In this document: positions 38,549 to 48,543 of the stretch, piece after piece
How the letters are laid out: every line of letters starts with the position of its first letter
How positions within the stretch are numbered: the stretch's first letter is position 1
Assembly: GCA_963666345.1 (NCBI GenBank)
Contig: OY762721.1
Location: 3,072,001 to 3,136,000 of the forward strand
From: Desulfatiglandales bacterium
GTDB taxonomy: Bacteria > Desulfobacterota > DSM-4660 > Desulfatiglandales > Desulfatiglandaceae
Reading direction: 5' to 3'
Length of the DNA stretch: 64,000 nucleotides
Program-made: the position numbers and the translations under genes
Notes under the pieces: model-generated
Told to the model about the DNA's origin: nothing
The model's input: only the letters and a program-made list of their open reading frames with translations
The model's database searches: none

Positions 38549-38749
38549 ATGGGCAGAACAAACGTGGTGATTGATGATAATCTGGTCAATGAATGTCAAA
38601 AATTGACCGGAATTCGTACACGGCGCGCTCTTATAGACTACGCGCTACATGAGGTGCGACGCCGTGGTCGTCAGAAACGATTGCTTGAACTGAAGGGCAC
38701 TATCAAATGGGAGGGTGACCTTACCGAGTGGCGGGAGGCTCGTGATTAA
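38549..38749 (+). CDS. vapB: VapB antitoxin
   Basis: RTNVVIDDNL..LLELKGTIKWEGDL; stop overlaps vapC start. Confidence 0.88.
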   Translation: MGRTNVVIDDNLVNECQKLTGIRTRRALIDYALHEVRRRGRQKRLLELKGTIKWEGDLTEWREARD

Positions 38750-39138
38750 TGGTGCTTGTCGATACATCAGTTTGGATCGACTTATTTGCAGGCCGTAACG
38801 AGTCACATGTGATGTCACTTCAGGAACTGATCGAGAGTGAAGAGGATTTGTCACTCTGTGGAGTTATCCTTGCGGAAGTTCTCCTAGGTATCCGTTCTGA
38901 TGCAGATTTTACCAAAACAAAGGAGTATCTTGGCGACCTTATTTTCCTGCCCATGCGGCAAGCATCATTTGTAAAAGCAGCTGAGCTCTATAGGTCCCTT
39001 CGAAAGAAAGGGGTTTCAATTCGGAAACCAGTTGATTGTATGATTGCTTCTGTTGCAATTGAGTACAATATCCAACTGCTTCACAATGACCGCGATTTCA
39101 ACCATATTGCCAGGCACTCAAAGCTTAGAATATTTTGA
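38749..39138 (+). CDS. vapC: VapC PIN-domain toxin
   Basis: LVDTSVWID, DCMIA, LLHNDRDF. Confidence 0.92.
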   Translation: MVLVDTSVWIDLFAGRNESHVMSLQELIESEEDLSLCGVILAEVLLGIRSDADFTKTKEYLGDLIFLPMRQASFVKAAELYRSLRKKGVSIRKPVDCMIASVAIEYNIQLLHNDRDFNHIARHSKLRIF

Positions 39139-39292: not shown

Positions 39293-42200
39293 ATGAAGAC
39301 AAGTAGTATTGATTCAACAAAAATCGACGGCAATCGAAGCATCAGGCAAGGTGGAACATTTATCCGGGCAATTACATGCTTAATGCTCCCGGTAATCATC
39401 TCTATTCTGTTGATGGGCCTTCCTTCGGTCGGGCATGGAACCGAGGATCCCCTGACACCTGAGGAAAGAGCCTGGCTGAAGCAGCATGACGAGAAGATTA
39501 TTGTAAATAATGAAGCAGGCTGGCCGCCGATTATAGATAGGGATAACGATGGCAATTCGTTTGGAATTGTTATGGATTATCAAAGATTGATTGAAAAGAA
39601 GCTTAATTTTAAGTTCAAAATGGACAAGTTGGACAGCTGGAAAAACTTTATGGAGAGGTTTCGTAAAGGAGAAATTGACGTAAATAATAATCTTCAAAAA
39701 TCTCCTAAGCGAACTGAATATGCACTTTTTACAAAGCCCTATATAGAGATTCCAAATGCCATCATCGTCAGAAAAGAAAATAAAAGCGTTCTCACCTTAG
39801 AAAAGATGCGTGAAATGAAAATCGCGGTTACCAATGACTTTGCCATTCATGGCTACATCAAAAACAATTATGATTATTTACAACTCATACCGCTTGATGA
39901 TGATCTCAGTTGTTTGCTTGAAACCTCCACCAAAAACGTAGATGCAGCGGTCGTGAATCTGGCTGTTGCATCATTTATTATAGAAAAGATGGGGATAGCC
40001 AACCTTCGCGTCGCAGGATATGCCGAGTATACAAATGCGCTCTGTTTTGCGTCAAGAAAGGATTGGCCGATCCTGAACCGGATACTGGATAAGGGACTTA
40101 ACCTCATCAGCCAGGCAGAAAGGAAAGCCATTTACAGAAAGTGGATCTCTTTGAGATATATACCTTTTTACAAAACCCGTAATTTCTGGATCGTTTCCTG
40201 TAGCGTAGCCGCGGCAGTTATAGCAATTATCATTATGATACTTGTTTGGAATCGAAGTCTGAAAAGGCAAATTGAGTTACGAACAGAGAAACTTGAAACA
40301 ATCAATGTTCAATTGAAAAATGAGATAGATGATCGCAAGAAGGCGGAAGAGTCACTAAAGGAGAGTAAAGATAATTATCGCATTTTGTTCGATAATGCCC
40401 CCGACTTAATTATCGTAATCAATACTGAAGGAATTTTTCTTGATTTAAATAAAAAGTTTGAGCAAGAAAGCGGTTACAGCCGAGAGGAGATGATAGGGAA
40501 AAGTGTCTTCACAAGCGGGATATTAACAGAATCATCTGTTAATTTATCAATACCTTACTTTGAAAAGCTTCTTGCGGGGGGGAAACGGGCCTTACTTGAA
40601 ATTGAAGGTGTGACAAAAGGTGGCAGTAAAGTTCCTTATGAGCTAATGGCGGTTCCTATTAAGAAAGATGGTAAGATAGTGGCAGCTCAGGCGACACTGA
40701 GGAATATGACCGATCGCAAGCAGGCGGAGGAGGAAAAAGATAAGCTGCAGGAGCAGCTGTCCAGTGCTGTGGAAATGGCCCGTCTGGGCCATTGGGAGTA
40801 CGACGTCGCCAAGGACCTCTTCACGTTCAATGACCATTTCTACAAAATATTTCGCACCACAGCCAGGCAAGTCGGAGGGTATACGATGTCATCGGCTGAA
40901 TACGCCCGTCGATTTGTCCATCCTGACGATATGACTGTTGTCGAAGAAGAAAATCGAAAAGCTATTGAAGCAACCGATCCCAACTTTAGCCGACAACTGG
41001 AACACCGAATGGTTTATGCCGATGGGACGGTCGGCCATATCACCGTTCGGTTTTTCATCATCAAGGACGCCCACGGTAGGACGGTCAAGACCTATGGCGT
41101 GAATCAAGATATTACCGAGCGCAGGAGGACGGAGGAGGCGTTACGGAAGAGCGAGGAGAAATACCGGAATATTCTTGAAAACATTGAAGATGGCTATTAT
41201 GAAGTAGACATTGCTGGAAACTTTACTTTTTTTAACAAATCAATGTGCAAGATCCTTGGATATTCAGCCGATGAGTTAATGGGCAAGAATAATCGTGAGT
41301 ACACGGATGGAGAAAATGCAAAAAAGATTTTTCAGGCCTTTCATGACGTGTATCAAACAGGAATAGCCACCAAGGCACTTGATTGGAAACTTATCAGAAA
41401 AGATGGTTCCGAGTGTTTTGTCGAAACGGTGGTGTCTCTTGTAACGGATTTAAATAACAACAAAGTGGGATTTAGGGGAATCGCCAGAGATGTCAGTGAA
41501 CGCAAGTCTATCGAAGCACAGCTTCACCAAGCACGAAAAATGGAGTCAATCGGCACCCTGACAGGCGGCATCGCCCATGATTTTAATAACATTATGGGTA
41601 TTATTGTTGGAAACACGGAACTGGCTTTAGATGATGTCCCGGAGTGGAACCCGGTTCATTCCAACCTTGAAGAGATCAAAACAGCCAGCCTAAGGGCAAC
41701 AAATATAGTAAGGCAACTTCTCAGCTTCAGCCGCAAGACCGACCAGAAACTGCAACCCATGGAAATTGCCTTAGTCATTAAAGATGCACTCAGATTTTTG
41801 CGATCAACGATTCCAACCTCCATAGACATTCAGCAGGATATTCGAGCCACGGATGAAGCTATTCTTGCAGAGCCAACCCAGATCAACCAGATCATGATGA
41901 ACCTGTGCATCAACGCTTCCCATGCCATGGAAAAAACCGGCGGAAATATTGCAGTCAATGTGGAAAAGGTGATTCTGGACGATAGTTCGGCCAAAGACTA
42001 TCCAGATTTGAGAAGCGGCAAACATGTCAAGGTAACGGTAAGCGATACAGGCCCGGGAATAGACCCTGCAATCATCGACCGAATCTTTGACCCCTATTTT
42101 ACCACCAAGGAAGTGGGAAAAGGCTCAGGCATGGGCCTTGCTATGGTGCAAGGCATTGTCAAGAACCTTAGCGGAGCGATTTTGGTTGACAGTAGGCCCG

Positions 42201-42658
42201 GCCAAGGCACTACTTTTACGATGCTTTTTCCACTGATTGAAGGAAAAACAGCGGTTGAAACAGAAACAATACAGGTGCTTCCCAGGGGAAGTGAAACCAT
42301 ACTATTCGTGGATGATGAACTGTCGATTGTAAAGATGGTGCGGAAAATGCTCGAGCGCCTGGGATACAAAGTCGAAACCTCCATGACGCCGCAAGATGCT
42401 TTGGAACGGTTTCGCCTGAATTCCGATCAGTTTGATTTAGTCATTACTGATATGACTATGCCGCAGATGACCGGTGTTAAGCTGTCTGAAAAGATAATGG
42501 AAATCCGAGAAGATATCCCAATCATCATCTGCACGGGGCATAGTGCCCTTGTCGATGAAGAAAAGGCGAAAGAATTAGGTTTAGCCGCCTATATCATGAA
42601 ACCAATAAACATGTCAGTAATCGCGCAGACCATTCGGAAGGTGTTTGACAAAAAATAA
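39293..42658 (+). CDS. Hybrid sensor histidine kinase (periplasmic binding domain, 3 PAS, HisKA, HATPase, REC)
   Basis: GGIAHDFNN, NLCINA, DTGPG, FTTKEVGKGSGMGL, FVDDE, TDMTMP. Confidence 0.93.
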   Translation: MKTSSIDSTKIDGNRSIRQGGTFIRAITCLMLPVIISILLMGLPSVGHGTEDPLTPEERAWLKQHDEKIIVNNEAGWPPIIDRDNDGNSFGIVMDYQRLIEKKLNFKFKMDKLDSWKNFMERFRKGEIDVNNNLQKSPKRTEYALFTKPYIEIPNAIIVRKENKSVLTLEKMREMKIAVTNDFAIHGYIKNNYDYLQLIPLDDDLSCLLETSTKNVDAAVVNLAVASFIIEKMGIANLRVAGYAEYTNALCFASRKDWPILNRILDKGLNLISQAERKAIYRKWISLRYIPFYKTRNFWIVSCSVAAAVIAIIIMILVWNRSLKRQIELRTEKLETINVQLKNEIDDRKKAEESLKESKDNYRILFDNAPDLIIVINTEGIFLDLNKKFEQESGYSREEMIGKSVFTSGILTESSVNLSIPYFEKLLAGGKRALLEIEGVTKGGSKVPYELMAVPIKKDGKIVAAQATLRNMTDRKQAEEEKDKLQEQLSSAVEMARLGHWEYDVAKDLFTFNDHFYKIFRTTARQVGGYTMSSAEYARRFVHPDDMTVVEEENRKAIEATDPNFSRQLEHRMVYADGTVGHITVRFFIIKDAHGRTVKTYGVNQDITERRRTEEALRKSEEKYRNILENIEDGYYEVDIAGNFTFFNKSMCKILGYSADELMGKNNREYTDGENAKKIFQAFHDVYQTGIATKALDWKLIRKDGSECFVETVVSLVTDLNNNKVGFRGIARDVSERKSIEAQLHQARKMESIGTLTGGIAHDFNNIMGIIVGNTELALDDVPEWNPVHSNLEEIKTASLRATNIVRQLLSFSRKTDQKLQPMEIALVIKDALRFLRSTIPTSIDIQQDIRATDEAILAEPTQINQIMMNLCINASHAMEKTGGNIAVNVEKVILDDSSAKDYPDLRSGKHVKVTVSDTGPGIDPAIIDRIFDPYFTTKEVGKGSGMGLAMVQGIVKNLSGAILVDSRPGQGTTFTMLFPLIEGKTAVETETIQVLPRGSETILFVDDELSIVKMVRKMLERLGYKVETSMTPQDALERFRLNSDQFDLVITDMTMPQMTGVKLSEKIMEIREDIPIIICTGHSALVDEEKAKELGLAAYIMKPINMSVIAQTIRKVFDKK

Positions 42659-43230: not shown

Positions 43231-43428
43231 ATGCTTACAAAAATTCAGAAATGGGGAAATATCCAAGGTCTTCGTCTTCCCAAAAATTTGCTCAATGACG
43301 TACAGCTTGGGGTCGGTGATGATGTGGATATCAGTGTAAAAGACGGTGTAATTATTGTCACACCAGCCAAAATGGTCCGTGGCTTCTTATGTCCCAAACC
43401 AAGGGGATATTATCGCATTCACCTTTGA
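43231..43428 (+). pseudogene. mazE: MazE/AbrB antitoxin lacking its normal C-terminus
   Basis: KIQKWGNIQGLRLPK AbrB domain, then runs out of frame into mazF after VRG. Confidence 0.75.
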
Positions 43429-43717
43429 TCCCCAATCCGGTCACGAACAAAAAGGGCGACGTCCTGCTTTAGTTGTCAGTAAGGAGCTGTTCAATCGAAG
43501 TACCGGTTTAGCTATTGTGTGTCCTATTACAAATACACAGTGTGGTTTTCCATTTCATGTCCCTATACCAAAGGACAGCAGGCTAACAGGTTTCATTATG
43601 GTTGAGCAAATTAAATCAGTTGATTTTAGAGCCCGGCGTGCCAAACGAATTGAGCAGCACAGCAATGATGAATTGCTTTCTGAAGTCCTGTCTATACTGG
43701 ATGCCTGCATTTATTAG
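43379..43717 (+). CDS. mazF: MazF/PemK toxin
   Basis: YVPNQGDI..FDPQSGHEQKGRRPALVVS, CPIT, EQIKSVD; GTG start inferred. Confidence 0.9.
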   Translation: MASYVPNQGDIIAFTFDPQSGHEQKGRRPALVVSKELFNRSTGLAIVCPITNTQCGFPFHVPIPKDSRLTGFIMVEQIKSVDFRARRAKRIEQHSNDELLSEVLSILDACIY

Positions 43718-44271: not shown

Positions 44272-45660
44272 TTATTTTGCCCTGTTGGAACTGCCCACCT
44301 GTTCAGGCGGCCTGATGTCGAGCTTTTTCATCTTGCGGAACAGCGTTGTCTTGTGGATTTTCAGCTCTTTGGAGGTGGCGAGTCGATTCCATTTATTCTT
44401 TGTAAGAACTGATATGATGAACTGCTTTTCCACTTCAGCCAGGCTGGAAGCGGTGCCCATATTTTCTGTCCGGGGTCGCAGCGATTCGGGTAAGTGCCTG
44501 ACCCGGATTAAATTGCCGGGGCACAGGACGCAGCCATGTTCAATGATGTTTTCCAGCTCCCTGACGTTTCCGGGGTAATCATGGCTCATCAGTATGGTTA
44601 AGGCATCAGGGGAAATACCGTTGATATCTTTGTCGTGAAGGGCTGAAAATCGCCCGATGAAGTGATTTACGAGTAACGGCACATCTTCCATCCGTTCACG
44701 AAGCGGTGGAATTTCCAGCTTGATTACATTAATCCTGTAATAGAGGTCCTGCCGAAATGTCTTTTTGGCAACCATCAATTCCAAGTCACGGTTTGTTGCA
44801 GTGACAATTCGAACATCGGCCTTCACGGAACGAACACCACCCAGGGGTTCATATGTTTTTTCCTGAAGTACGCGGAGGAGCTTTATCTGAAGGAGCGACG
44901 GGAGGTCCCCGACCTCGTCAAGGAACAGCGTGCCCCCTTCGGCCAGGGCGAAACGTCCAGGCTTGGCCTTGACGGCACCGGTGAAGGCGCCAGCCTCGTA
45001 CCCGAAAAGCTCCGACTCTATAAGCGTTTCCGGAAAACCGCCGCAGTTTATGGCGACAAACCGTCTTTTACTACGTCTACTGAGGTTGTGAAGGGCACGG
45101 GCGAAAACCTCCTTGCCCGTTCCACTTTCACCCGTTATCAAGACGTTGCTCTCATTCAGGGCTATGGTAGGCAGGATGTCCAGGATCTGTTTGATTTTGT
45201 TGTTTTTGCTGATAATATCTTCAAAGGTATATGTCTTTTCTATTTCTTTTCGCAGCTCTTCAACGTGTCTCAGATCCCGGAAACTCTCCACCCCACCGAT
45301 CAGTCTGCCTTGTCTGTCTCTGAAAAGCGCCGTGGAAACGCTTATCGGGATCTGCGCCCCCTGTCTATTGGTGAGGTACACCGTAAGGTTTACGACCGGT
45401 CTGCCGGTTTCTATCGTATACTGTATGGCACAGGCATCTCTGCAGATGTTTGATTTAAAAACCTCATAGCAGCGGCGCCCCAGCGCCTCCGAGCGCGGTA
45501 TGCCTGTGATTTTCTCTGCAGCGCGGTTAAAGCAGGTAATACGCCACTCACGATCCACAGTAAAAACTCCCTCGCTTATACTGTGAATTACCGCCTCAAA
45601 ACGCTCAGGCGACGGCTCGCCCAGAAAAGCCGCTGAATTGAGTCTGTCCTTTTCCGTCAT
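44272..45660 (-). CDS. PAS-domain sigma-54-dependent transcriptional activator
   Basis: GESGTGKE, ESELFGYEAGAFTGA, FLDE, PGNVRELEN, Fis HTH. Confidence 0.95.
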   Translation of the reverse strand: MTEKDRLNSAAFLGEPSPERFEAVIHSISEGVFTVDREWRITCFNRAAEKITGIPRSEALGRRCYEVFKSNICRDACAIQYTIETGRPVVNLTVYLTNRQGAQIPISVSTALFRDRQGRLIGGVESFRDLRHVEELRKEIEKTYTFEDIISKNNKIKQILDILPTIALNESNVLITGESGTGKEVFARALHNLSRRSKRRFVAINCGGFPETLIESELFGYEAGAFTGAVKAKPGRFALAEGGTLFLDEVGDLPSLLQIKLLRVLQEKTYEPLGGVRSVKADVRIVTATNRDLELMVAKKTFRQDLYYRINVIKLEIPPLRERMEDVPLLVNHFIGRFSALHDKDINGISPDALTILMSHDYPGNVRELENIIEHGCVLCPGNLIRVRHLPESLRPRTENMGTASSLAEVEKQFIISVLTKNKWNRLATSKELKIHKTTLFRKMKKLDIRPPEQVGSSNRAK

Positions 45661-45765: not shown

Positions 45766-47640
45766 CTAAGGAGTGGCATTATATGAGTGTCCCCTGGTCA
45801 ATGTCTCCATCCGCTTTTTTGAATATCCCAGGATTTCCCAGGCCTCTTTGTAGACCGGCCTTCCGTCCCTGTTAAAGGGATCAATAAGGATTTTTCGATT
45901 AAAAAAGGGAGAAGGCTTTAAGTGGCAGTCTTTACACCCTTTGGATCCGAGGGCAAATTTGCCGCTGACCACATTATGGCTGAGATCAAAGGGTTCGCAG
46001 CATTTGAACCCCCCGTCGCGCGTAGGCATTAGAGCCTTGTTCAATTGATTGTGATCGAGATAATATATCATGCCGCCCTTTACCAGAACAGGCGAGTGGT
46101 ACACGATCCGGCACCCGAATCTGTCCTTGCCCTCTGATATGGCCTTGAGGTATGTCGTTATTTCTTCCGCAGTGTTTACCTGTTTTGATCCGTTTAGCGC
46201 CTCCAAAAGGGCATAGTTGGTGATGGAAAAATTGTTCTTGGGTCCGGCTCCGGTGAAGTCCCTGATTCTCCACAGGACAATGGGGATAACACGATGAGAA
46301 GACCTGTCCCAATCTCCCCACCATACGACCTGCATAGGGTCAACCGGCTTGATCTTTCCTTTGTATTTTACAAACGCGGGGCACCAGCTGCTTTTCGGAA
46401 ACCTTCGGCAGGATTGAGCGGGATTCAGGGGATCATTAGATAAAAAATCCGAGGTCAGGTATCGGATACTGTGTCCTGTTGTCGCGTTGTCCATTACTGA
46501 AGTGGCTGCGTTGATTTTGTACGGGATATGACATGTTTCACAAGATATTTTATCGATATGCAGATCCGGGAATTTATGATCAGGTCTCGGCGCACGGCTG
46601 TCCGCTCCCTTTAAATGACAATCCGCACAGCCCTTCATGCTCACATCAATATCATCCCTTACGGACCCGACCAGTATGTCACCCTTGGCAATTTCATGAT
46701 TTTCACCGCCGCTGTGACAGTATGTGCATGATAGATTTTTTGCCTTGTGGACGTCTGTTGCGGCATCCCAGCTTCTGCCTCTTTTCATGCCGTCAGGCAT
46801 GACATGACAATTCCAGCAGTTTTCGTCAGGGACCTCTCCGGTTATGGATGCGGCAAGATCCGCCGGGTCGGCGACCCCCGTCTTTGTGTAATCAAGGCCG
46901 AATGAAAGGGCTTTAGCAGGCAGTGAAGGAAGGGCCGGTTTAGACGCCTTGAGATCGCGATACCATCCGGCCCCCACCATGGGTGCCTCGTAAAAAAATC
47001 CTCCTCTAAGGGCGAGCGTCCGTGCTTTCCAGTCATACCCTTTGAGGTGGCAGCTCAGGCAATCAGCCTCAATCACGCCGCTTTTTGTCCAATTTGATTG
47101 ATAATAGTCACCGTCAAGATAATTATCGCCTCTGGGTATGATATTATTGGCGGGGTCTCTTGCGAATTCATCGTAGCGATTTCCCTTGCGGTCATACTCG
47201 CCTGGCCCACCTCCCGGATGGCAGACGCCGCAGGTCTTTGCCCAAAAATACGATGACTTGTCAATGTCACAGCGCCTCATGTTTACCTTCCTTGCCAACT
47301 GGCTGGAATCCGAAGAGGGGGGTCACCACTTGCCGTACATGCCGCGTGAAATCAGCCAGGGGTTTTTGGAGTCCATGTCGTCCCTGACGATTATATTGCC
47401 CGCAGCATCGGTTCGACCATGTTGAAAGTGATAGGCGTTGGTTATGGCGTCATAATCATGACATTCCCCGCATGTGTTTTTGGGGCTGTAAGGGATGTTG
47501 CTCTCAAGCGGTATTTCATTTCCATCGTAATCCATCAGTATGACTTCCGGATGGGGTGCCTTCTCAGAAGCCTCGGAAACGGGAAACAAAAAGGGCATCA
47601 ATAACGTCCACAAAATAAAAAGAAAGCCAGATTTTCGCAT
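45766..47640 (-). CDS. Octaheme cytochrome c with in-frame UGA (putative selenocysteine 106), 624 aa
   Basis: Signal peptide + CGECH in the first ORF; GKW-TGA-PPSSDSSQLARK continues in frame into the second ORF with 7 more CxxCH. Confidence 0.75.
47288..47308 (-). promoter_or_regulatory. Putative SECIS hairpin
   Basis: UUCC-A-GCC-AGUU-GGC-AA-GGAA; apical loop begins 23 nt after UGA and has G at its second position. Confidence 0.5.
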
Positions 47641-47808
47641 GGGGAGACTCCTTTCACAGTTGGTTTAAACCGGTTTTCCTTTTATCGTACAGGTCCGGTG
47701 CCGTGAAATAAAAAAAGAAACCGCTATGGATCGGAAGATATATAAGGCTTCAATCCCGCAAATGATAAAGCCGCCCTTTCTCCGGTTCGGTGTTCGATCC
47801 TTCGGAAT

Positions 47809-48471
47809 TTATCTCCTGTGTAATTGCTCTGCCTGATCCAGAAGAAGGGACTTGAAATGATCAAGCTTTACGGGATATCCCTGGATCGGAATCCCCATCC
47901 AATCGGAGTACTCCAGGAATTTCTCCGGGTTTTTAGCCATATACTTTTCAACATATCCGATTGCATCAAGTACGATCGCACCTCCCGTATGCCGGGGAAA
48001 ATTTTCATTGGCAAGCCCCTTGTCCCAACCTTTGAAGACATTGTGCCTGAATTTGATCCAGCCGGGCGTCATCCACCAGATTTTTTCATCGCCTGCCACC
48101 TCCCGAGCGATTTGTTCACGTTCCGCTTCACCGGCGATCATATCCATGCAGTGTGTCGCCTCAATTCTCGCCACACCCGGGCCTTGCTCTTCAATGACTT
48201 TGCGCATGGTGCGAGCGGGCTCCTTGGCGTTGACGTAACAGAACTTGCCCCCGTATACTACGAGGACCTTGTCCACCTTTTCCTTTGCCTTGTTGATTTG
48301 CTCAATGAGTTGATGTTCCAGTTCAGGGACATCTTCATGGAGCCCGGGCGTTGTGAAAAACAGATGATGAGTATCCAGAAAGCCTTCCTCCTTTAAATGG
48401 TTCAGTTCCATAATCAAAGTGCCGCACGAGACCACCGCAATATCAGAAAAGGACACCTGGTTCATTTCCAT
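47809..48471 (-). CDS. DUF1638-like protein
   Basis: VVSCGTL, PGLH, VVYG..C, HCMDM, WWMTPGW; start trimmed to MEMNQ after AAGGAGG. Confidence 0.7.
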   Translation of the reverse strand: MEMNQVSFSDIAVVSCGTLIMELNHLKEEGFLDTHHLFFTTPGLHEDVPELEHQLIEQINKAKEKVDKVLVVYGGKFCYVNAKEPARTMRKVIEEQGPGVARIEATHCMDMIAGEAEREQIAREVAGDEKIWWMTPGWIKFRHNVFKGWDKGLANENFPRHTGGAIVLDAIGYVEKYMAKNPEKFLEYSDWMGIPIQGYPVKLDHFKSLLLDQAEQLHRR

Positions 48472-48527
48472 ACCTCCTTTCAGGTTGAGGATTGGATAAT
48501 CCTTACCTAATTCCCTGTTCATATATA

Positions 48528-48543
48528 GGCACAATCCATGCCA
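48528..48543 (-). promoter_or_regulatory. Sigma-54 (-24/-12) promoter
   Basis: TGGCATGGATTGTGCC. Confidence 0.8.

Follow-up and report, generated by a model that had tools for sequence, protein, structure and literature searches.

A 64,000-nucleotide stretch of the genome of a Desulfatiglandales bacterium (contig OY762721.1, positions 3,072,001 to 3,136,000; the whole stretch is called the window here) carries on its minus strand a gene for a multiheme cytochrome c that is interrupted by an in-frame UGA. Positions 47640..45766 very probably form a single gene, in which a selenocysteine insertion sequence (SECIS) directs selenocysteine (Sec) into position 106 of an exported eight-heme protein, and this protein is a member of a family that is sister to octaheme tetrathionate reductase (OTR). 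The original prediction, made from the window sequence, had placed Sec at residue 106 between hemes 1 and 2. This position is supported by a TGA/Cys column in the homologues, by a conserved hairpin behind the UGA, and by the Sec machinery of the genome.

Reading frame and conservation of the TGA column

As read here, the complete gene (45766..47640, minus strand, terminal stop included) would encode a 624-residue octaheme cytochrome c with Sec at codon 106. Two minus-strand open reading frames (ORFs) were listed for this region, one of 105 residues (47323..47640, ending in GMYGKW) and one of 510 residues (45766..47298). The original prediction had joined them across the stop codon into one protein of 624 residues with eight CxxCH motifs, and the translation with TGA read as U gave exactly this product. 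In that translation, positions 47640..45766 comprised 624 codons and a stop in a single frame, the only departure from table 11 being U106 (UGA at 47323..47325, minus strand). The first cysteines of the eight CxxCH motifs are C57, C137, C194, C275, C305, C338, C367, and C569. Heme 1 motif CGECH (C57-H61; 47458..47472, minus strand) was invariant in alignments of 56 and 52 sequences, and heme 3 motif CLSCH (C194-H198; 47047..47061, minus strand) was seen in the translation and the alignment.

Residues 1-24, MRKSGFLFILWTLLMPFLFPVSEA (47569..47640, minus strand), look by inspection like a probable Sec-type (export) signal peptide with a charged n-region, a hydrophobic core, and SEA, and the homologues likewise had N-terminal hydrophobic segments. 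The 510-residue ORF begins with LARKVNMRRCDIDK and showed no hydrophobic stretch by inspection, in agreement with the earlier claim that the downstream ORF has no signal peptide. The joined product would be exported via its N-terminal signal peptide, and its eight c-type hemes would be attached in the periplasm. Contigs from an RNA library flanked the UGA (47141-47313 and 47409-47512) and none of them bridged it, so that neither read-through nor transcription as one unit follows from them.

Conservation of the TGA was analyzed in two rounds of sampling. Twenty-nine related loci were fetched from species-representative genomes, and 27 of them were read in frame; L041 and L049, which hold the C-terminus only, were left out. 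Column 106 was covered in 25 loci and showed TGA in 18, Cys (GKWCP) in three, Tyr in two, and Ser (TCA, locus L030) and Arg in one each. The 18 TGA loci shared GMYGKW-TGA-PP, with protein sequence conserved on both flanks. The tblastn matches in the related loci ran over residues 1-616 of 624 in one frame, and the reading frame was always kept across the TGA. One locus, L040:3630-4335, showed the conserved TGA plus TAG and TAA stops after match residue 184; it may be a decayed copy or a contig-end assembly problem.

The wider sample covered 401 genomes of the phylum with a homologue cutoff of E ≤ 1e-30. A homologue was present in 45 of these genomes, and 25 of the 47 matches had exactly one in-frame TGA. 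Thirteen distant TGA genes, with 33-45% identity to the window protein, were fetched, and the TGA stood at the same column in 13/13. The Sec motifs of these genes were GKWUPP, GGRWUTPAP, and GKFUPPSF. In a 52-sequence alignment, column 106 was read as Sec in 29 sequences, Cys in 9 (contexts GKWCP, GGRWCP, and GGNWCS), and another residue in 14. A quick maximum-likelihood tree placed Sec in all four major clades, with Cys and the other residues as nested groups. The original prediction had named Cys or a conserved in-frame TGA at this column as the sign of Sec in aligned homologues; both were found, which supports Sec.

The SECIS-type hairpin and alternative readings of the UGA

Bacterial SECIS elements are hairpins with a G/U-containing apical loop, and the accepted distance from the UGA is 16-37 nucleotides (nt). 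A hairpin of this type, UUCC-A-GCC[AGUU]GGC-AA-GGAA (47288..47308, minus strand), spans nt +15..+35 after the UGA, over codons S112-K118. Its loop (47300..47297) follows 22 nt after the UGA, so that the first loop nucleotide is +23. A hairpin with a G-containing loop 23 nt past the UGA had been predicted, and the element found at this place was conserved across the Sec homologues.

The sequence GATTCCAGCCAGTTGGC, 12-28 nt past the TGA, was nearly invariant across 20 aligned sequences, and the consensus fold of these 20 was the hairpin. Synonymous variation in 16 full-length genes had its minimum at residues 109-115, with a value of 0.19 against a gene mean of 0.695. This was the lowest of 282 seven-codon windows, and the five lowest windows started at residues 108-112. 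In distant Sec clades the AGUU loop was kept and the apical GCC/GGC pairs were kept (CGC/GCG in two), whereas the lower stems differed in sequence and yet paired (UUCGA/UCGAA and UUUC/GAAA). The spacing from UGA to loop was 22 nt in 27/27 sequences and 16 nt in the other five (clade C).

At the protein level the loop corresponds to Q-L-A, which non-Sec relatives kept as well. CAGTTGGC was present in all 32 Sec genes (32/32) versus 4 of 15 non-Sec homologues in which Q-L-A is retained; this second count covers the non-Sec loci found by the Q-L-A pattern, and 9 of the 24 non-Sec loci lie outside it. The remaining non-Sec genes used CAATTAGCC, CAACTGGCA, CAGCTTGCC, and other codons for Q-L-A. The synonymous minimum, the pairing in distant clades, and the linkage to the TGA together point to an RNA-level constraint at the hairpin. 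In the proposed mechanism, the GCC-AGUU-GGC hairpin on its UUCC/GGAA lower stem would direct SelB and tRNA-Sec to decode the UGA as Sec. An unusually small SECIS on a conserved Q-L-A-x-K motif, such as this one, is well suited for testing SECIS prediction programs.

Two kinds of non-Sec relatives retained parts of this sequence. The Ser variant L030 was one of the four non-Sec genes keeping CAGTTGGC, and it looks like a recent Sec loss. In L065 and L069, which belong to a non-Sec sister clade, Phe stood at the Sec column and GAUUC(G/A)AGCCAGUUGGC was almost intact. These nucleotides hint at a relic SECIS and at a secondary loss of Sec in that clade.

The Sec machinery, which the original prediction had named as a check, was found in the genome. 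The scores of selB, selA, selD, and tRNA-Sec were 394, 609, 372, and 74.6 bits, respectively, all above the curated cutoffs. The selD gene carries its own in-frame TGA (Sec-type SelD; C1:620342-621268, locus L010), and two fdhA paralogues carry one TGA each (C1:1867344-1869350 and C1:1854383-1856389); these genes lie outside the window. The fdhA SECIS of the same genome showed a GGUCU loop 18 nt past the UGA, a geometry comparable to that of the cytochrome hairpin.

The thermodynamic weakness of the hairpin, together with the Ser, Met, Gln, Phe, Tyr, or Arg tolerated at column 106 in some lineages, would suit a read-through of the UGA without Sec, either programmed or by a near-cognate tRNA that inserts Trp, Cys, or Arg. 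We consider this reading very unlikely. The hairpin has the geometry and the G/U apical loop of bacterial SECIS elements, and its sequence is tied to the TGA by the counts given above. The Sec/Cys alternation at column 106 is a classical selenoprotein signature, and the genome holds the full Sec machinery plus other Sec genes.

An arrangement of two genes is, in our judgment, highly improbable. The UGA would then stop an exported monoheme protein of 105 residues, and a heptaheme protein of 504-510 residues would start at TTG115, GTG119, or ATG121. By inspection, a downstream product without signal peptide would have no access to the periplasmic heme-attachment machinery, and the frame kept across the TGA in homologues argues in the same direction. 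Codon 121 was TTA or ATA, which is not a start, in 3/16 relatives. Gene callers nevertheless picked the codon 121 start in many database entries (P0002, P0003, and P0009 begin with MRRCDIDK), and a Shine-Dalgarno-like AGGAAGG 5 nt ahead of ATG121 (window 47269-47289, minus strand) could allow internal initiation there. Gene callers probably begin the truncated protein there on account of this AGGAAGG, which the hairpin's 3' arm and the codons of the invariant R/K-K118 (R117-K118 in the window protein) explain.

The protein homologue search covered 5.8 billion proteins and gave 1305 matches. The 32 closest clusters (59-90% identity) were all 400-507 residues long and covered only the downstream ~80% of the query, and the named ones were called 'hypothetical protein'. 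Gene callers therefore cut the relatives in the window's clade at the same place, as the original prediction had expected of automated annotation. More distant matches (43-47% identity) were full length, with ~600-650 residues. Full-length single-polypeptide homologues of the cytochrome thus exist, and those with Cys or another residue at column 106 are single polypeptides of this size, which also argues against two genes.

An origin of the TGA in faulty sequencing or assembly, or in a recent nonsense mutation of a pseudogene, has only the presence of the stop codon on its side and was rejected as having a negligible probability. Eighteen independent close assemblies and 13 distant genomes share the TGA, and both its flanks were conserved as protein while silent sites elsewhere in the gene varied. 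A 6676-base contig of an independent public run, which may itself have been the source of this DNA, also spanned the gene from end to end with 0 differences.

The possible internal start ahead of ATG121 is one of several points that weigh against the reading as a single selenoprotein gene. The 60 nt after the UGA folded no better than shuffled sequences (z +1.2). The hairpin is short, with 7 pairs and an internal loop, at about -5 to -8 kcal/mol in the window's clade. Compensatory changes were seen in 0/8 pairs within the close clade and covariation only between clades, and an Rfam scan of 47150-47420 gave no match at E ≤ 10. Ser was present in the close relative L030, and Ser, Met, Gln, or Phe throughout one sister clade, so the residue is dispensable in some lineages. 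The AlphaFold2 model of the protein was poorest at residues 94-119, with a predicted local distance difference test (pLDDT) score below 50, in the very region that holds Sec106. The equivalence of Lys118 with the heme-2 lysine Lys56 of OTR, discussed below, comes from an alignment of 39 columns with a probability of 83%. The gene neighborhoods in the window's clade were variable and gave no substrate clue. Weighing both sides, we hold with high confidence that the cytochrome is a genuine selenoprotein, judged from nucleotide and protein sequences.

Kinship with OTR and the loop ahead of heme 2

Pfam and NCBIfam scans of the 624-residue protein gave only generic multiheme matches. The best NCBIfam match was the OTR model TIGR04315, with 35.7 bits against a cutoff of 375 and over residues 252-379 only; in the protein's own genome this model had no match at E ≤ 1e-20. 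The AlphaFold2 model showed a mean pLDDT of 64 and a predicted template modeling score (pTM) of 0.62. With this query model of low quality, Foldseek returned the OTR structure 1SP3 as the only match at E ≤ 0.001 (E 1.8e-5). VIA-align to 1SP3 gave a Z of 9.6 and a root mean square deviation of 5.3 A over 218 residues, and the next match had a Z of 2.8.

Twelve true OTR genes from the same phylum were gathered as a comparison profile. In hhalign, the window's family matched these 12 proteins over hemes 4-8 with a probability of 98.6% (E 7e-16), and the distal His residues and CxTCHIP were aligned between the two families. Heme motifs 4-7 (CWNCH at 275, CTYCH at 305, CADCH at 338, and CETCH at 367; 46528..46818, minus strand) are the core in common with OTR, and heme 8 motif CKDCH (C569-H573; 45922..45936, minus strand) was placed by the translation and the hhalign alignment. 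A sequence search of the PDB with the family profile gave chance-level matches only, with neither OTR nor MccSep, a Sec cytochrome discussed below, even at E ≤ 10. From the hhalign and 1SP3 matches and the TIGR04315 score below cutoff, the cytochrome belongs to the OTR superfamily and lies outside the OTR family as NCBI defines it.

The resemblance to OTR named in the original prediction was thus real. The window protein shares with OTR (Shewanella oneidensis SO_4144, PDB 1SP3) the form of a soluble, exported protein with eight CxxCH hemes, the DCLxCH and CxTCHIP motifs with the aligned distal His residues, an invariant Lys 19 residues ahead of heme 2, and a Sec/Cys residue between hemes 1 and 2. 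It differs from OTR in being ~190 residues longer, with large insertions, and its N-terminal third aligns weakly. Sec is also found in OTR itself. TIGR04315 is listed as a GenBank-annotated selenoprotein family in the relevant passages of a 2026 review (PMC13188914). Among the true OTRs of the phylum, 28 of 67 above-cutoff matches had one TGA. In the five true OTR TGA genes that were read, Sec stood in LGK-x8-F-U-I, ten residues ahead of heme 2.

In S. oneidensis OTR, the binding site of heme 2 is C74xxC77H78 and its ligand is Lys56, according to the passages on this heme in PMC3769277. In the window protein, heme 2 motif CGVCH (C137-H141; 47218..47232, minus strand) binds the probable catalytic heme, by analogy with OTR heme 2. 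Lys118 (47287..47289, minus strand; invariant in 56 sequences) is the candidate distal ligand of this heme. In the hhalign of the N-terminal third, the LGK lysine of OTR fell on K118, and each lysine has the same spacing to heme 2; K118 probably matches the heme-2 lysine ligand of OTR. Seven conserved non-motif His residues (H30, H71, H298, H315, H355, H361, and H555) were counted for eight hemes, a number compatible with lysine in the eighth axial position.

In the same alignment the Sec/Cys column of OTR fell at or near C124, not at U106. Sec106 precedes the conserved Lys by 12 residues, while the OTR Sec/Cys follows it by 9, so that Sec106 and the OTR Sec are probably not the same position. 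With the alignment being weak here, Sec106 probably sits in the same catalytic loop as the OTR Sec at a different position. The original prediction had compared a GK followed by Cys/Sec ahead of heme 2 with OTR. The general resemblance stood, but the invariant K118 is a likelier equivalent of the OTR lysine than G103-K104, and the two Sec positions probably do not match.

By analogy with OTR, seven bis-His hemes would relay electrons to a catalytic, Lys118-ligated heme 2, and Sec106, upstream of Lys118 in the same loop, may act at this heme as a nucleophile or redox-active residue. In the window's clade Sec106 may cooperate with further cysteines. Cys124 (47269..47271, minus strand), at the Sec/Cys column of true OTRs, was present in 13/17 members of the clade; Cys510 (46111..46113, minus strand) was invariant only in this clade (17/17); and the Cys547-Cys548 pair (45997..46002, minus strand) in a clade-specific insertion was present in 17/17. 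The enzyme would most likely work in the periplasm and reduce a compound of sulfur, of selenium, or of a related inorganic kind; this function, like the heme ligation and the role of Sec, we infer by analogy. A bolder and rather doubtful proposal is that Sec was recruited at a second, independent site of the OTR loop in a large unnamed selenoprotein family, and that together with the clade cysteines it forms a new Se-S relay or metal center beside the Lys-ligated heme, for a substrate outside the range of all characterized multiheme reductases.

Heme ligation and spacing varied among distant relatives. The H30 column (47551-47553, minus strand; motif HPE) showed Cys in three distant clades (4/5, 9/9, and 5/5; loci L052-L068), and in one distant clade His361 was also replaced by Cys. 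These replacements suggest that the relatives concerned went over from His/His-ligated to His/Cys-ligated heme. The distant GGRWU clade (L054:436-2358, plus strand) had CGTAGCH as its first heme motif, with four residues between the cysteines against the usual two, and only seven CxxCH were therefore counted there.

Gene neighborhood and comparison with other Sec cytochromes

A sigma-54-dependent activator gene with a PAS sensor domain (44272..45660, minus strand; identified by Pfam) lies next to the cytochrome gene and is a possible regulator; similar sigma-54/PAS activators adjoined the cytochrome gene in 6 other loci. The sigma-54 consensus TGGCAC-N5-TTGCA (≤ 2 mismatches) had no match in 47641-47808 upstream of the gene, and regulation by the neighboring activator is thus unsupported at the promoter level. 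In the window this consensus gave 13 matches against 16.8 expected by chance. The gene immediately upstream of the cytochrome gene (47809-48534, minus strand; from the neighborhood scan) encodes a DUF1638 protein. A DUF1638 gene 80% identical to it was found ~1.4 kb downstream of the cytochrome gene in L022, but in none of the other loci examined.

Across the window and 12 close loci, the neighbors included sigma-54/PAS activators, GAF, Usp, cytidylate-kinase-like, diadenylate cyclase, and DUF1638 genes in varying combination, and there was no conserved operon partner, quinol dehydrogenase, or arsenic gene beside the cytochrome. Ten distant loci showed another picture. Three of them (L093-L095, all of the GGRWU clade) were flanked by arsR, acr3, and arsC, one lay beside an ExtI-type porin, one beside a TsoB selenoprotein, and five had no such context. 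Since the window-clade loci have no arsenic genes, an arsenic-island function was not transferred to the window's clade. The host genome encodes dsrA, which makes the host an anaerobe of the sulfur cycle.

Other cytochrome genes were seen beside some of the relatives. In L095 an ExtKL/MccSep-family gene (L095:8834-9730, plus strand; NF040886, 380 bits) lies directly downstream of the distant Sec octaheme gene in an arsR/acr3/arsE-like island, so that two different Sec cytochromes stand side by side. In L042 (Ignavibacteriales) and L043 (Zixibacteria), the neighbor of the Cys-type homologue was a very long open frame encoding 21 CxxCH, which suggests a multi-cytochrome cluster in the Ignavibacteriales and Zixibacteria phyla. 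Elsewhere in the window, a PIN-domain gene (38749-39138, plus strand) and a MazF/PemK-type toxin gene (43355-43717, plus strand) probably belong to toxin-antitoxin modules. They flank a hybrid histidine kinase of 1121 residues (39293-42658) with periplasmic solute-binding and PAS domains.

Sec-containing multiheme cytochromes are already known, namely MccSep/ExtKL, the GSU2204 family, and OTR-family proteins. No model in NCBIfam release 20 covered the window's family. It was not among the proteins named in the main-text passages of PMC13188914 (ExtKL, GSU2204-family, UshA-like, and TIGR04315). Literature searches on Sec multiheme and octaheme cytochromes gave no description of it, though the supplements of PMC13510729 and PMC13188914 might list it. 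By its sequences, it is a widespread, uncatalogued sister family of OTR with Sec in multiple clades. Routine annotation misses selenoproteins, and the entries of the window's clade are truncated and without signal peptide. As a result, this enzyme is miscounted when the cytochromes of sulfate-reducing sediment bacteria are inventoried or their metabolism is modeled.

In its main passages, a recent paper (Sci Adv 2026, PMC13510729) describes MccSep/ExtKL of Geobacter sulfurreducens (GSU2937-2936) as a multiheme polysulfide reductase that contains Sec. In the same passages it is a pentaheme protein, and its Sec attacks polysulfide or selenite beside a His/Cys heme. NF040886, the model for ExtKL/MccSep, had no match in the window protein at E ≤ 0.01 and none in the genome, and the GSU2204 model NF041027 had no match to the window protein at E ≤ 0.01. 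As far as those passages go, MccSep differs in having five hemes against eight, in carrying its Sec in a C-terminal Ig-like domain rather than between hemes 1 and 2, and in a His/Cys-ligated catalytic heme, where the window protein probably has Lys.

On the same passages, the likenesses are that both are periplasmic multiheme cytochromes c whose genes are annotated as two ORFs split at the Sec-UGA, that a Pro follows Sec (D-G-U-P in MccSep and K-W-U-P in the window protein), and that Sec stands at a catalytic heme whose distal ligand is not His, an arrangement that for the window protein is the one predicted above. MccSep, to the extent that these passages describe it, may therefore serve as the best working model for the Sec-heme chemistry. 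After MccSep, the window's family would be a second, unrelated scaffold placing Sec next to a catalytic c-type heme, and it allows Sec plus heme to be tested as a general solution for the reduction of sulfur, selenium, or arsenic compounds in the periplasm.

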